A stretch of DNA of 40,803 nucleotides from the IMG/VR virus record IMGVR_UViG_3300048856_000136, positions 1-40,803 of that record; one strand, given 5' to 3'. The stretch comes from a virus. Taxonomy: Duplodnaviria > Caudoviricetes. A program made the translations under genes and the position numbers. Below are positions 1-40,803 of the stretch, one piece after another; position 1 is the first letter of the stretch; every line of letters starts with the position of its first letter. The notes beneath the pieces were generated by a model. That model worked only from the letters and a program-made list of their open reading frames with translations, was not told the DNA's origin and searched no databases.

Positions 1-348
1 TCACGGCGTATCGATAGTTAATTTCACTTTGTGCCAGCCGCTGGTGGTCCAGCATTTTGCATCGCCCTGACATGGGCAATCATTAACCGGCAAACTTTCA
101 TGACACTTCTCACACTGGCTTTCAGCCAACACTTCTAATTGCTTCTTCAGCTCGCCATGATATTTGCGAATCATCAGTGCTATCAGTTCTGAACGGTCAT
201 ATGGATCACGACCCGGACGACGAGCGGCGCAATCATGGTCGAGCATTACCAGCTCCTGATCATCCAGAATCAGTTCAATCTTGTGATTACCGGCAGCGGC
301 CTGACGTTTCCGCTGCTCGGCTTTGCGTTCTGCTGCGGACTTACCCAA
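1..348 (-). CDS. Conserved phage hypothetical protein with C-terminal Cys cluster (possible Zn binding)
   Basis: 115-aa ORF coupled to 341..613. Basic N-terminus (KSAAERKAEQRKRQ) and CxxC..CxC..C near the C-terminus. Confidence 0.7.
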   Translation of the reverse strand: MGKSAAERKAEQRKRQAAAGNHKIELILDDQELVMLDHDCAARRPGRDPYDRSELIALMIRKYHGELKKQLEVLAESQCEKCHESLPVNDCPCQGDAKCWTTSGWHKVKLTIDTP

Positions 349-13083: not shown

Positions 13084-13183
13084 AAAAAAAATCCCGCGCT
13101 CTACAGGGTGGGTGAGAGGTGGCGGGAAAAGAGTTCAAGTTTCGTTTCATAAGTCATCCTCTGAGATGACAGACCTACTTTAG
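13084..13183 (-). ncRNA. Candidate sRNA unit
   Basis: -10 CTAAAGT, 5' hairpin GTCATC-TCAGAG-GATGAC, terminator TCCCGC..GCGGGA + T8. Confidence 0.4.
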
Positions 13184-14858: not shown

Positions 14859-14955
14859 AAAAAAGCGGCCCATCCGTGGGCCAAGGACATGGTAGGAGTT
14901 CTTTATGGTTTTAGGTTTTACATAAAATAAATTAGCTAACGCTCAGGCGACAACA
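14859..14955 (-). ncRNA. Candidate sRNA unit
   Basis: Minus-strand terminator GGCCCA/TGGGCC + T6. Shares motifs with the array unit at 39225-39330. Confidence 0.4.
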
Positions 14956-15074
14956 AGCATAAGCGGCTGCTTTTTTTATGCGATTAAGAATTCTCCGACA
15001 AGGGATACGGTTAGCCACGCTTTGAAGCGTCGCGGAGCTGGTATAATCGCACCTCAATAAAAAAGAGGTGGTTT

Positions 15075-15308
15075 ATGTTAGATCCTAAGCCGTGCTTTAT
15101 GGTGCTTGCCTATGATTCAAATGATATGCCAGGAAATTGCAAAGATATTATGGGCTACGCCCGTAACACAGAAGAAGTCGAAAGGCTTATACATACAGCT
15201 AAAAATAACGCGCTTTATTCGTATGACCACATTGAAACTGTCGATGCTCATTTGGACAAAGTCTTAATAACCATTCGTCGGAACAAAGATCAAGAATGGC
15301 ATTCATAA
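15075..15308 (+). CDS. Moron hypothetical protein
   Basis: Own extended -10 TGGTATAAT (~15040), GAGG RBS, terminator 15338-15359. Confidence 0.7.
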   Translation: MLDPKPCFMVLAYDSNDMPGNCKDIMGYARNTEEVERLIHTAKNNALYSYDHIETVDAHLDKVLITIRRNKDQEWHS

Positions 15309-15365
15309 AGATCACAAAATGAATGTGATGTCAGACTAACCGCCTCCGGGCGGTTTTTTATTGGA

Positions 15366-15605
15366 GTGAATATGACATATCAAACCGAACAGCAACGTAA
15401 GCGCCAGCGTGAGGAAGAAGAACGCCGCCGCCGTCATCAAAGCAACACTGGCTCAAGCAGCGACCTTATAAACCCGCTAAACCCAATCAGCCCTATTTAC
15501 GTCGGTAACGACTACAGCAGCAGCTCAAGCAGCTCCGATTCATGCAGTGGCGGCTATGACTCAGGCAGTTCGTCCGACAGTGGCGGCAGTTGCAGTAGCG
15601 ATTAA
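15366..15605 (+). CDS. Low-complexity hypothetical protein
   Basis: Arg/Glu-rich N-terminus, Ser/Gly/Asp-rich C-terminus, GGAG RBS, terminator 15610-15636. Confidence 0.6.
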   Translation: MNMTYQTEQQRKRQREEEERRRRHQSNTGSSSDLINPLNPISPIYVGNDYSSSSSSSDSCSGGYDSGSSSDSGGSCSSD

Positions 15606-15750
15606 CACAGGCCGCCTTTCAGGGCGGTTTTATTTTGTTCTGAAAACTGCATTCACTGAGTTCAATTTTCAGCATAAACACAATGAATCATCGGCTGGTG
15701 GTCTCACCATTGCCGAGGGTTAAACACATCCAACTAGCAGGAAACTCTGA

Positions 15751-16389
15751 ATGACTATCTCTGCACGCATTGTTAAGGCAATTGTGACGTTACCAATTCT
15801 CGGAACTGTCAGCCGTGACGAACACGGCGAAGTCATAAAGCGCGGCGAGAAATACCTTATCAAGGTCTATGCTGCCAAACCTGACTGGAAAGAGAAGAAG
15901 TCTTTCCGCGACATGCTGTACGTAGGCGCGCTGAGTGGGCAGGGTTACACAGAATCACCATACAAGCGAGCTCTGGATGCGGTCCTTCCTGAAGGTCATG
16001 AGCTGGTGGCGCTGAGATTTGACGATCTGGGCATACCCTGCTGGGAAGGCTTACCAATTCACATTAACCAGTGGTTCACTGGTGAAGGATGGATGCTCGT
16101 TAAAGAAGGGCAGATTTTCATTAATGACGCATTAATTCAGCCTGGCGCAATCCAAAGTTACAGCATGACTATTGGCGTTAACACTGTCAAGACTACCGCT
16201 GATAAGGTGCGAGAAATCGTTTTGAGGTATCTGAATGGCGAAGCTACAGAGTACAACGTGGTTGATGACCTATGCGCTCTGGTTAAGCAGGAAAATGAAT
16301 ACACAAAGCTTTCAGCTCTAATCAGCGAACAAATCCGAAATCGTATTAAGCAAGAACAGCAGCCGGGCGGATTGCTTCACAAACGATAA
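15751..16389 (+). CDS. Hypothetical protein containing a J-like (DUF1983-like) segment
   Basis: GQIFINDALI resembles GQVFISQAFI in J. Terminator 16388-16410. Confidence 0.65.
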   Translation: MTISARIVKAIVTLPILGTVSRDEHGEVIKRGEKYLIKVYAAKPDWKEKKSFRDMLYVGALSGQGYTESPYKRALDAVLPEGHELVALRFDDLGIPCWEGLPIHINQWFTGEGWMLVKEGQIFINDALIQPGAIQSYSMTIGVNTVKTTADKVREIVLRYLNGEATEYNVVDDLCALVKQENEYTKLSALISEQIRNRIKQEQQPGGLLHKR

Positions 16390-37296: not shown

Positions 37297-37779
37297 ATGC
37301 CGGAAGAAATCGAAAGCACGCAAGATGCAGTGATTCCAGAAGAAATTCAGAAAGAAGAAGCAGGCTATATGTACAGCCTGAGCGCGCGGGCGTTCTATCC
37401 GAAAGGAACTATTTCGCAGCAGCCTTATGTTGATGCCGGGAGTTTACCCGGTGACTTAACTGATATCAGCGATGAAGACTATGCGGCCTTCTTTAATCCA
37501 CCCGAAGGTTACAGCAGCGTATTCGATGAGTCTGGCCCCCATCTGGAGAAGATACCAGAACCGGATTATAAGGCTTTAGCTGACAAAGATAAGCAAGCCC
37601 TCCTAGACCAGGCTACGCAGGCGATTACCGTCTGGCAAACTAAGCTGCTTATGAGCCGCAAACTTACCGAGAAAGAGTCAGCCTCACTCAATGCATGGAT
37701 GGATTATATCGACGTGCTTAACGACACTGACTTAAGTGATGCGCCTGATGTGCAGTGGCCTGCAAAGCCTTCAAATTAG
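37297..37779 (+). CDS. tfa: Tail fibre assembly chaperone (Tfa)
   Basis: WQTKLLM..LNAWMDYID..DVQWPAKP. Confidence 0.88.
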   Translation: MPEEIESTQDAVIPEEIQKEEAGYMYSLSARAFYPKGTISQQPYVDAGSLPGDLTDISDEDYAAFFNPPEGYSSVFDESGPHLEKIPEPDYKALADKDKQALLDQATQAITVWQTKLLMSRKLTEKESASLNAWMDYIDVLNDTDLSDAPDVQWPAKPSN

Positions 37780-37926
37780 AGAAGTATCAGTCGCTCGGTT
37801 ATTACCGTTACATCTCTGCCATTTCACAGGCACGTGGCAAAAACCTTAATACACATACATAAAGCGCTAAGGATAAGAAATGGTTCTATGCTTATAGAGA
37901 TTTATCTAACCCAGACGGGAGGAACA

Positions 37927-38112
37927 ATGACTGCACATCGTGGTGGAACTGGTAACTTTGCGGAAAATCCTGAGCGTGCTAAAGAAGCGGGTAGCAAAGG
38001 CGGTAAAGTCAGTGGTGGAAATTTCAAGAATGACCCCAGGCGTGCGGTTGAAGCCGGTCGTAAAGGTGGAGCAATAAGCCGGAGAGGCAAAGTAAAGCAA
38101 CCAGAGCAATAA
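37927..38112 (+). CDS. KGG-repeat general stress protein (YciG/GsiB-like)
   Basis: HRGGTGNFAENPERAKEAGSKGG and NFKNDPRRAVEAGRKGG. GGAGG RBS, sigmaS-like CTATGCT at 37886-37892. Confidence 0.88.
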   Translation: MTAHRGGTGNFAENPERAKEAGSKGGKVSGGNFKNDPRRAVEAGRKGGAISRRGKVKQPEQ

Positions 38113-38578
38113 GAGGGTCTGGGTTAACTTTGAATCCCGTACATATTAGCCGTTTGAAATCGCGGATATGAAAAAAACCCGCGTAGGCGGGTGTGGCAAA
38201 GTTCACCAATAAATTTCATCCGTGACCCCAGTAAAGCACATGGTTAATTATTAGCCATAAAAAAGCATGGCGACCAGGCAGTGAATGTTCTGCTTCTGTC
38301 TGAGCAGGCTTACGGGGTGAGTGATTAAATATCAGGCTCTCGTAAATCAGAGAGGCAGACCGAAGAGATAAAAAAGCCCGGTATGGATACCGGGTCATCT
38401 ATTTAGATGAAAAAACACACATAACCTGCACAGCTAAACACTAAACCTTCCCTACTTCGCTTTATATTTTGTTAGAAAAGTGAAAGTCAGAATTATGCAG
38501 AGTTTTATGAGGCCATAAGAAACCCGCCATAACAGAACGTGATATCGTGATTTGGTCGAAAAGCGAGCGGGGTTGGCT

Positions 38579-38785
38579 ATGTACTCAAACGAAGCAGACG
38601 AACTCTACGAGGAGATGTGCCGCATAGTAGGCGATATGGTGTTCACGCTGCATGATTTTGGCGTTGATTCTAAACAGATGGTGATAGCAGATGCGCTGAG
38701 AACCGCGCTGGCGCATAAGGGAGAGGAAAGAACAGAATTGATGGTAAAAGCAATGGAGGCGGCGGTTCGGGTGCTGGAGCGTTAG
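38579..38785 (+). CDS. fumD: FumD/YdhZ (DUF2767)-like small protein, copy 2
   Basis: Highly similar to 3021..3224 (shared FTLHDFGV, ALAHKGEERTELM). Confidence 0.7.
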   Translation: MYSNEADELYEEMCRIVGDMVFTLHDFGVDSKQMVIADALRTALAHKGEERTELMVKAMEAAVRVLER

Positions 38786-39034
38786 TCACAAAAAAGCCCG
38801 CACATGGCGGGCAATTGGTGTGTCCTAATCTTATCGTAGGCAACACAATGCTGTGTGTTACCTGTTCAGCTTAGCTCGCAGGTGCTTATTAACTGTGAGA
38901 ATTGTCTAAATGTCATCTTCTGGTTGTGTCAGCGAGACTGAAGACAAAAAAGCCCGCTCAGGACGGGCCAACCAGTAATTTTGCTGTATGAAGTCTTATT
39001 ATAGACCTGAGGCTTGCAGTCTCGGGCACTGAAG

Positions 39035-39061
39035 TTATCGACCGTATCGCATAAACCTTGA
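39035..39061 (-). promoter_or_regulatory. sigma28 (FliA)-type promoter
   Basis: TCAAGGTT-N11-GTCGATAA. Confidence 0.65.
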
Positions 39062-39147
39062 GCGATAGACACAAAAAACCCGCGCGAGGCGGGCTTGAAA
39101 TGTAATGCCGTCGATCTTATTTGGGGTTTAATTCCCTGGTAAGACTG

Positions 39148-39174
39148 TTATCGGCATAGGTCAGTAATTCTTCA
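39148..39174 (-). promoter_or_regulatory. sigma28 (FliA)-type promoter
   Basis: TGAAGAAT-N11-GCCGATAA, perfect -10. Confidence 0.7.
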
Positions 39175-39556
39175 GGCTGAGATACAAAAAATTGAACGAG
39201 GCGGGTTAGCCTTGGATTTCAGGCAAAAAAATCCCGCATATGCGGGCGATATGACGATGATGTTTTAGTTATGCACCAGGGTAGGAGCGTAGTGACAATT
39301 TGCCATAGATGCTGTTTACATAAAATAAGCTCTTAAAATTATCAGAATTTAAGTATAAAAAACCTGCACGAGGCGGGCAAATAGGTGTCTTTATCTTGTC
39401 GTTCGCAACACTTGCTGTGTTACCGGACAATACTAATCCCCAGATTTTGATAAATAAATCACTCTGTATAGATTATGTGATGTGAGTTCTTTAGTGGTTG
39501 CTGGCGCGCAAAAAGCCGCATCTCTACGGCCTCATGTCACCCAAACGTCTCCGGCC

Positions 39557-39646
39557 CTATGAAAAGTAAAGGCCCTTTTGCAGCAATGCCTCAATCAGCA
39601 TGAGTACTACTATCGCTGCACAAATAGGAGGCAGATAAATCTTCAT
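39557..39646 (-). CDS. 29-aa hydrophobic peptide (type I toxin-like, not in ORF track)
   Basis: MKIYLPPICAAIVVLMLIEALLQKGLYFS*. AAGGGAG RBS within a CTTCCC-AA-GGGAG hairpin, terminator at 39510-39530. Confidence 0.6.
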   Translation of the reverse strand: MKIYLPPICAAIVVLMLIEALLQKGLYFS

Positions 39647-39883
39647 GTTATGCTCCCTTGGGAAGTTTCTGAGTTAGAACCAGAAGTAAACACAACTGGT
39701 TAGGCATACCTCTCTTTCGTCCACTAAAGGGGACTCATCCGTGAGGTGCTATAGTCCTGACAAACCCTGGTGTTGGTTTGTTAGATAAAATTTGGTAGCT
39801 GAAATAATAGGCGGGGGAGATGATATCACCTGTTATCCACAGGGCTTAGCTGTAAATTTATCAGGTGTCACTCTTAGAAATAC

Positions 39884-40145
39884 TCAGTCCATAAACTTAA
39901 GAGACGGATGCTCCATCCCCGCCTCAATAGCATCTACGTTACGCTGCATTTCAGTAATTAGCTTCTTTGCCATATCTAAGGATATCGACATAAGGAAATT
40001 CTTTTTCGGTTAATGCGTGCTCGGCTAGGGTATCCTTGAAAGACAGCTTGAGCACCATCAGCTGAGCCATAGAGCTGTAAATTGAACCGAATTCAACTAA
40101 ATCGCGCATTCTTCCAACATTGGGCTCTCTTTCATTTTTCATCAA
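39884..40145 (-). pseudogene. Frameshifted small gene, possibly BssS-like
   Basis: ORF 39951..40145 continues in another frame near 39985 as ISLDMAKKLITEMQRNVDAIEAGMEHPSLKFMD*. Size and pattern resemble BssS. Confidence 0.45.
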
Positions 40146-40803
40146 CAGGCTCCTCTTGTTTTAATGAAAGCTTAATTTTCTGCAATTCATCGTATCGATC
40201 ATGGAGAGATTTAGGGAAAAGCTCGGTATAAACCTGCCACAGCGTGCTAAGAGAGCGATGTCCGCTCACCTGCGCGACTTCCTCAATAGTGAATCCAGCT
40301 TCGAATAATCTACTAACTCCCTCTCTTCTCAAATCGTGATAGCGCAGATCGGAAATACCCAATTTGTTACGTTCCTGAGCAAACGTAAGGGAAATGTTTT
40401 TCGGCCTGAATGGGAAAATACATTCCTCTCGTTTGGGTTGCCTCATAACAATCTCCCAGGCATCACCAAGCAAGGCAACTTTCATATGATTACCTATCTT
40501 TTTGCGAGGATCCTTTCTGTCTCGTACAACAACCGCTTTTTGCACGTGATCTATATCTTCCCACCGAATACGGGTGACCTCGCCAACGCGCATGCATGTT
40601 AAAATTGAAAACATGAATATTTCGGAGAAAGGAATGTTTTTATATGAACTTTTTTCTCTGACTTTTAGGGCTTCAATAAGACGATCTGTTTCGTCCTGCG
40701 TTGGCCGGCGACTTCTTTTTTGAGAGGAGGTGGTCATGCGAAGCTTATTCATTTGATACTTCGCATAGCTAAAATCATCCAGCCTGACATCTACGTTGAA
40801 CAT
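40132..40803 (-). CDS. int: Tyrosine recombinase/integrase, catalytic portion (probably 5'-truncated by the window)
   Basis: TCMRVGE (R), RDRKDP (K), YHDLRRE (HxxR), SGH, and Y in WQVYT. Confidence 0.92.
   Translation of the reverse strand: MFNVDVRLDDFSYAKYQMNKLRMTTSSQKRSRRPTQDETDRLIEALKVREKSSYKNIPFSEIFMFSILTCMRVGEVTRIRWEDIDHVQKAVVVRDRKDPRKKIGNHMKVALLGDAWEIVMRQPKREECIFPFRPKNISLTFAQERNKLGISDLRYHDLRREGVSRLFEAGFTIEEVAQVSGHRSLSTLWQVYTELFPKSLHDRYDELQKIKLSLKQEEPVDEK

Follow-up and report, generated by a model that had tools for sequence, protein, structure and literature searches.

What fills the gap between the tail genes and the integrase gene of this phage, where an initial annotation had seen a tandem array of individually promoted small RNAs? 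The window, i.e. the whole stretch of DNA analysed (40,803 nucleotides), is a complete 40.8-kb virus record, that of a lambdoid temperate phage with repressor, cro, cII, replication, Q, lysis, terminase, capsid and lambda-type tail modules. The region is bordered at one end by a tail-fibre chaperone gene and a KGG-repeat gene and, at the other, by the C-terminal part of the integrase gene (40132-40803). The integrase gene is truncated where the record ends, and its N-terminus is not encoded by the opening ORF (window 1-348), so that the record terminates within this gene; no attP site was located. The host is probably a member of the Erwiniaceae, and probably Pantoea, as suggested by the plasmid matches to the region, which all come from Pantoea (7 of 72,556 plasmid records). 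Next to the integrase gene, a broken minus-strand ORF (39884-40145) is spread over two frames; read by eye, it is seemingly whole behind the integrase gene of a related locus (L439).

From the following lines of evidence, we consider it rather likely that 38790-39424 holds five consecutive non-coding cassettes, each closed by a terminator of its own, which would produce separate small RNAs (sRNAs) of 55-85 nt in the lysogen (Table 1). The predicted lengths are about 73 nt (A1), 68 nt (A2), 83 nt (E), 69 nt (F) and 55 nt (H), with starts about 7 nt downstream of the -10 boxes.

Table 1. Features of the region and its borders, in the order of the window; promoters and RNA ends are predicted.
Feature	Position	Strand	Details
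KGG-repeat stress protein gene, borders the region	37927..38112	+	Pfam PF10685, E 3e-12
Terminator D, convergent on the KGG gene	38171..38192	-	strict scan
Decayed copy of a type B cassette	38256..38334	-	matches on Pantoea plasmids
Terminator C	38371..38394	-	strict scan
DUF2767 gene, convergent on the array	38579..38785	+	Pfam PF10965, E 1.3e-22
Unit A1 (type A)	38790..38875	-	C-TAAGCT -10 at 38874-38868; predicted RNA ~38862-38790
Unit E	38946..39061	-	sigma28-type TCAAGGTT-N11-GTCGATAA (39061-39035); predicted RNA ~39028-38946
Tract of unit E complementary to the RprA 3' seed	38981..38997	-	16 bp, one mismatch, one G-U
Unit F	39073..39174	-	sigma28-type TGAAGAAT-N11-GCCGATAA (39174-39148); predicted RNA ~39141-39073
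Half terminator (5' arm and U tract)	39186..39205	-	same form as the A-to-E junction in L439
Unit H	39225..39292	-	CTACGCT -10-like box at 39292-39286; predicted RNA ~39279-39225
Unit A2 (type A, short form)	39357..39437	-	-10 TAGTAT at 39435-39430; predicted RNA ~39424-39357; imperfect terminator
29-codon hydrophobic ORF with a good Shine-Dalgarno	39557..39646	-	own terminator at 39510-39530

First, the region is crowded with terminators of one orientation. A strict scan (stem of at least 5 bp with at least 4 G-C pairs, dG of -6 or lower, and a U tract) found seven minus-strand terminators in 38150-39560 and none on the plus strand, as compared with a mean of 0.11 and a maximum of 1 in 200 dinucleotide shuffles. 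Their stems (39530-39515, 39246-39233, 39095-39077, 38969-38951, 38812-38796, 38394-38377 and 38192-38177, minus strand) make up 7 of the 13 minus-strand terminators that the same scan finds in the whole 40.8 kb. An eighth terminator (39357) has a mismatched stem and fails the scan, yet it folds and belongs to the repeat family D1; two others, at 39186-39205 and 38256-38280, are broken. The eight intact and two degenerate terminators first reported, all on the minus strand, are thus recovered as seven strict, one imperfect and two broken ones, and the reported spacing of about 130-160 bp holds for the five central ones (156, 126, 154 and 130). The region is not a single array, and the ten terminators cannot all be counted as sRNA units: the five units (38790-39424) and the three lower terminators lie on either side of the DUF2767 gene, and the terminator at 39510-39530 most likely ends the mRNA of the 29-codon ORF, not an sRNA. 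With these two genes, the reported lack of ORFs does not hold for all of the gaps. The 29-aa peptide belongs to no Pfam family and has no homologue in the 533 loci of our collection; the DUF2767 gene flanks arrays or single terminators in three of these loci (L001, L272 and L335). Elsewhere in the window, a lone minus-strand terminator (14866-14883) stands near a transcribed moron (14886-16120) and may belong to another small RNA.

When the region was compared by BLAST with 50,697 phage records, nothing matched, and a DNA search of 401 order-level genomes matched the terminators only. Within the array, no Rfam family reached its gathering score (37700-40200); IsrK obtained 17 bits of the 50 needed, and STnc100 had no match. 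No homologue of units H, F, C, D or of the top unit was found in the 533 loci, where terminator C gave no BLAST hit. A sigma70-type promoter scan of the region showed no enrichment (5 sites versus 6.2 in shuffles); the promoters are visible only by comparison with homologues.

Second, such a comparison delineates type A, to which units A1 and A2 belong. This type consists of a 5' hairpin, an A-rich linker and a terminator, and it comprises 17 distinct aligned sequences from prophages, Pantoea plasmids and metagenome contigs. A TAnnnT -10 box occurs at a fixed place in 16/16 members, with a C at -13 in 11 of the 16; both were absent from every search pattern, and we take the C at -13 to be a signature of sigmaS. 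Sequence identity amounts to 0.46 upstream, 0.66 at the -10 box, 0.90 in the hairpin and 0.73 in the linker, the hairpin value being inflated because its ACAC-GCA part belonged to the search patterns. Unit A2 scores 57 bits with the covariance model R1, in whose training set it is included, and its homologue in L439 is 87% identical over 117 nt. The 5' hairpin of A1 carries the motif ACACACAGC (38858-38850). Covariation provides no support (0/7 pairs) because the 5' stem is invariant, and there is no conserved ORF longer than 8 codons. Eleven matches to the type A pattern in 401 family-level genomes were all attributed to chance, and no type A was found in the genus-level genomes around G490 (1 genome) and G048 (4 genomes). 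In the window itself, the gap between the Q and holin genes (13086-13171, minus strand) obtains a weak type A model score of 17.6 bits and might hold a small RNA.

Third, type E has a promoter of another class. Its eight members, which were gathered by their 3' end and not by their promoter, all possess a sigma28-type promoter with an 11-nt spacer (identity of 0.72 in the -35 box, 0.47 in the spacer and 0.88 in the -10 box). The promoters of units E and F show 13/16 matches to what we presume to be the sigma28 consensus (TAAAGTTT-N11-GCCGATAA type), and the array holds two such sites versus a mean of 0.016 in 500 shuffles. In 40 related loci, 8 of the 14 sigma28-type sites lie 40-125 nt ahead of a terminator, against a background of 3.4%, seven of these eight being the type E members themselves. 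A further site on a Pantoea plasmid (L335:3700-4440), 81 nt before a terminator, is unrelated to type E. Unit F resembles unit E in its upstream layout; the two pattern matches found as its possible homologues were both judged to be unrelated. Type E displays three weakly covarying pairs, no conserved ORF, and an invariant stretch, CTGGTTG, directly before the terminator. Two sigma classes are thus predicted by homologue comparison, in agreement with the different sigma inputs initially suggested. As to the -10 elements, those of type A are conserved boxes, but the TATAAT at 39003-38998, which had been assigned to the unit ending at 38946, is likely a wrong call because the conserved promoter of unit E is of the sigma28 type and lies about 35 nt further upstream.

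The remaining units are less well documented. The promoter of unit H was read from its sequence alone. Type B, of which the window retains the decayed copy, comprises 48 distinct pattern-matched sequences (33 aligned), one of which (L370) looks unrelated. It is common at prophage tail ends, is almost always head-on to the last tail gene, and has no conserved ORF. Its stem changes are one-sided only. The RNAalifold fold of type B, whose preferred structure disrupts the terminator, was set aside. Type B also occurs in Pantoea phage AH07, in Escherichia phage SaltyDalty and in Kosakonia cowanii, about 3.6 kb beyond a related integrase (L126:10220-10327). Collectively, the units belong to different families, and not to a common scaffold with variable 5' seeds as had been thought. 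Their predicted features are those of trans-acting sRNA genes: a promoter of their own (predicted from conservation), a U-tailed terminator and no conserved ORF.

Fourth, the cassettes occur in other orders and numbers at homologous prophage ends, as expected if units are gained, lost and shuffled. Locus L262 has three type A cassettes and a type B; L258 has the order A-A-B, with the two type A in tandem; L369 has the order A-like, E, C-like and B; and prophage G403 carries three type A between the tail chaperone and a tRNA-like end. In L439, of which the integrase-side neighbourhood is as in the window, H and F are missing and A is joined straight to E: the 5' arm of the A2 terminator is followed by a U tract and then by the E promoter. 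From this junction and the half terminator at 39186-39205, likely a recombination scar, we infer that units are gained and lost by recombination between similar terminators. Large Pantoea plasmids harbor a single type A behind a conserved alpha/beta-hydrolase gene, and on one Pantoea plasmid type A adjoins DUF2767 and KGG. Among 45 tail-chaperone loci, five close relatives (L292, L294, L295, L296 and L297) have at least three minus-strand terminators behind the gene, and most others have zero to two. One of these loci (L297:2642-4509) also contains five Rfam STnc100 matches above the cut-off in the prophage tail region. Used as a query, the related array of L369 matched only 2 of the 5426 E. 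coli genomes searched, along 56 nt. Two broader searches were unproductive: the integrase-based one returned mostly distant alphaproteobacterial loci, and a loose hairpin pattern returned 119 viral loci, nearly all by chance.

As regards expression, one soil metatranscriptome contains the phage (44/44 pieces at least 99% alike); it comes from a single study and was found using this very stretch, and DNA is possibly present in it. Long contigs span 38930-40125 at a depth of 17.1, the repressor operon at 14.4 and a moron at 11.4; the listed tail-gene pieces have depths of 2-8. Deep contigs at these three places are a weak hint of the pattern expected of a lysogen; the contigs give neither strand nor ends, and one of them crosses five terminators unbroken. 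According to the bin depths, contigs are missing from about 38600 to 38929, where unit A1 lies, a gap that proves nothing.

What could such sRNAs do? Phage-borne sRNAs can act as sponges of host sRNAs, and RprA, an envelope-stress sRNA of the host, was singled out ahead of the pairing tests. The linker of unit E pairs with the conserved 3' seed of RprA (identical in E. coli K-12) at -22.0 kcal/mol, the best value among 168 non-redundant pre-terminator sequences, which was matched by 0/300 body shuffles and 1/300 seed shuffles. Among 346 windows of 15 sRNAs, mostly from E. coli and not from the host, RprA was the best partner of unit E, and over all windows one of 25 shuffled linkers did as well; the same is true of the related unit in L272 (0/25), which is homologous to unit E and hence not an independent case. 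The tract is missing in 6 of the 8 type E members, and the L439 copy has one mismatch more. A scan of the locus collection for the tract gave 59 matches, only one of which falls in a cassette, and that one was already known.

Type A points to the same seed, which it can meet with 8-12 perfect pairs in 17/17 members. Its motif ACACACAGC is identical to positions -95 to -87 of E. coli csgD, where RprA site Ib (-87 to -96) has been established by compensatory changes, according to Mika et al. 2012 (PMC3465796). Of 17 matches to TGCTGTGTGT in three genomes, RprA and one RprA-like copy make up the only shared place. The net binding of type A to the RprA 3' part is modest (-1.6 to -10.6 kcal/mol versus -21 for csgD site I) because the motif is half buried in a stem. 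It is significant for A1 (0/300 shuffles), whereas A2 (P 0.25) and a plasmid copy (P 0.11) do not reach significance. The linker of A1 (38832-38813), itself imperfectly complementary to RprA, adds a second, colinear pairing, and the A1-RprA duplex taken alone is not significant (P 0.08). Collectively, 15 of 80 non-coding pre-terminator sequences reach -16 kcal/mol or lower with the RprA seed, as compared with 4 of 78 coding ones and a mean of 4.3 of the 80 with shuffled seeds (P 0.003), a count inflated by the ACAC-GCA part of the search patterns, the searches used having enriched the 80 in type A. At this set level, weak AU-rich windows of MicF and ArcZ reach 18 and 17 versus 15-16 of 80 for RprA; McaS shares the RprA seed. 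The hexamer AUAAGA, reported at three places, is indeed present at 38829-38834, 38994-38999 and 39115-39120, with ACAAGA at 39394-39399 (three AUAAGA versus 0.32 expected; P 0.0035, uncorrected for the hexamer having been freely chosen). The sites at 38994 and 38829 open the RprA-pairing tracts of E and A1; as a shared conserved seed the hexamer does not hold, not being kept as such in most type A and E homologues.

Complementarity to the seed of a core sRNA is thus predicted for unit E and type A, and not for H, F, B and D. Hence, of the sRNA or sponge cassette originally put forward, conserved bodies and promoter boxes support the cassette, and the sponge is predicted for two units only. We propose that types A, B and H would be read by sigmaS/sigma70, and E and F by the flagellar sigma28, so that the set of RNAs made would track the host state. 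The A-rich linker and U tail would load these RNAs on Hfq; unit E, via its linker, and type A, via its hairpin loop or linker, would then pair with the RprA 3' seed and, as target mimics, titrate RprA and relieve its targets, in the manner of AgvB towards GcvB. Recombination would take place at the GCCCGC terminators, which are nearly identical. That such a decoy role is real for at least one unit seems to us possible, at somewhat less than an even chance. An action of type E against GcvB was unsupported in the pairing tests.

Other sequences resembling RprA were encountered. Type G cassettes (L272:1330-1420, L385:860-945 and L438:460-540), which stand behind a sigmaS-like -10, contain the RprA seed in sense, UUGCUGUGUG followed by GUGUCUU. 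A second RprA-like sequence (L405:1500-1613 in G490; 48.5 bits, below the cut-off) lies among phage-like early genes; with its intact 3' seed and terminator and its different 5' half, it might be a phage mimic of RprA. We offer tentatively the wider proposal that prophages and plasmids of the Pantoea group trade plug-in sRNA cassettes, which would read the sigmaS/sigma28 state and contest the RprA seed, as decoys (type A and unit E) or in sense (type G and the L405 copy); the RNA array would be integron-like, with recombination at the shared terminators.

Four other explanations deserve attention. The cassettes may be genuine Hfq-type sRNAs that target mRNAs, the RprA match being due to chance or to a shared A/C-rich seed class. 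We hold this for a tenable, if minority, view, and it forms part of the likelihood that we attribute to the sRNA battery. It is in line with the lack of a significant match to any of the 15 sRNAs for most type E members and for H, F, B and D, with the position of the invariant CTGGTTG of type E before the terminator, where seeds usually lie, and with the 13 other places that carry TGCTGTGTGT in three genomes. However, the 16-bp RprA match of unit E and the L272 unit survives the all-window correction, and no phage translation-start region pairs with the units better than shuffles do, phage starts being those scanned.

It is improbable that the region is a mere graveyard, i.e. terminators and promoter scraps that deleted morons left behind and that persist only as insulation between convergent genes. 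The half terminator at 39186, the decayed type B copy, the broken ORF at 39884-40145, the orientation of the terminators towards DUF2767 and KGG, and the lack of homologues of H, F, C and D (533 loci) would all fit, and this reading may apply to C, to D and to the 39186 scar. Nevertheless, conservation is not confined to the terminators: the bodies and promoter boxes of types A and E are conserved above their flanks, the sigma28 promoter keeps a fixed distance in 8/8 type E members, and single copies persist on plasmids.

We regard as very unlikely that the units are protein-binding decoys (CsrA/Rsm sponges, anti-CRISPR repeat mimics or type III antitoxin mimics) or leaders of the attenuator kind that encode tiny peptides. 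The top Rfam score of the region is indeed that of Trp_leader (25.5 versus 41 needed), and an 8-codon GTG-started frame exists in 12 of the 17 type A members; however, this frame starts inside the stem, without a Shine-Dalgarno, and is missing from A1, the units are not repeats of one sequence, no repeated GGA loops were seen in the folds, and there is no downstream gene to attenuate. Least credible are type I antitoxins or cis-antisense RNAs aimed at genes of the phage itself (29-aa peptide, DUF2767, tail) in the manner of sar, oop and STnc6030, which the small hydrophobic ORF heading the array and the head-on position of type B could evoke, but 0/5 units pair with any of 40 phage start regions (29-aa ORF included) beyond shuffles, the units end short of the convergent genes, and no Rfam antitoxin matched.

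Returning to the sRNA battery with a possible RprA decoy, its interest is twofold. Phage sRNAs are known singly or in twos, and a battery whose units can be reordered would amount to compact regulatory cargo that escapes annotation entirely. If the decoy is true, a prophage or a plasmid could dampen the Rcs/Cpx envelope-stress output. In E. coli and Salmonella, this output governs RpoS, biofilm and the block that RicI imposes on conjugation (PMC13501541); in Erwinia, it governs exopolysaccharide, motility and biofilm dispersal (PMC7814967). An RprA sponge, a tandem phage sRNA array and a sigma28-driven phage sRNA were not described in the literature searched, which covered few subscription papers.

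The closest known systems are AgvB and AsxR (EcOnc01-03), the anti-sRNAs of EHEC prophages that block GcvB and FnrS by mimicry of mRNA targets (Tree et al. 2014, PMC4104026). Like them, the cassettes would make short terminator-ended RNAs at lambdoid moron sites, with predicted mimicry against a core sRNA. The same paper describes AgvB/AsxR as RNAs of 51-60 nt with a common 42-nt 3' scaffold and variable 5' ends, occurring in convergent pairs after PR', whereas the array consists of five co-oriented unrelated families in the tail-integrase gap, with RprA as the predicted target and sigma28-type promoters. The AgvB/AsxR models RF02702 and RF02703 gave no match at E of 5 or lower in 37700-40200, nor at E of 1 or lower in 12 related loci. 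With no scaffold match and another position, the array is not a member of this family. It also recalls the Pas RNAs of EPEC prophages, which are intergenic lambdoid sRNAs with U-tailed terminators and variable presence or copy number (PMC8550237; bioRxiv 10.64898/2026.05.13.724894). By these descriptions, which set the array apart from Pas, the latter are mostly single genes per prophage region, the pasA copies being at least 22 kb apart and not in tandem, and are restricted to Escherichia/Shigella (bioRxiv 10.64898/2026.05.13.724894). Further literature for comparison includes PMC5861431, PMC12803456, PMC12656757 and PMC12197685. In csgD, ACACACAGC belongs to the leader of an mRNA, as part of a longer site of 36 nt with far stronger calculated binding (PMC3465796), whereas type A has it in a free-standing cassette, half of the motif being buried in the hairpin. 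Finally, the sigma28-dependent sRNAs UhpU, MotR, FliX and FlgO derive from the UTRs of chromosomal genes, as Melamed et al. 2023 (PMC10578931) report, whereas E and F are free-standing phage cassettes with a predicted link to sigma28.
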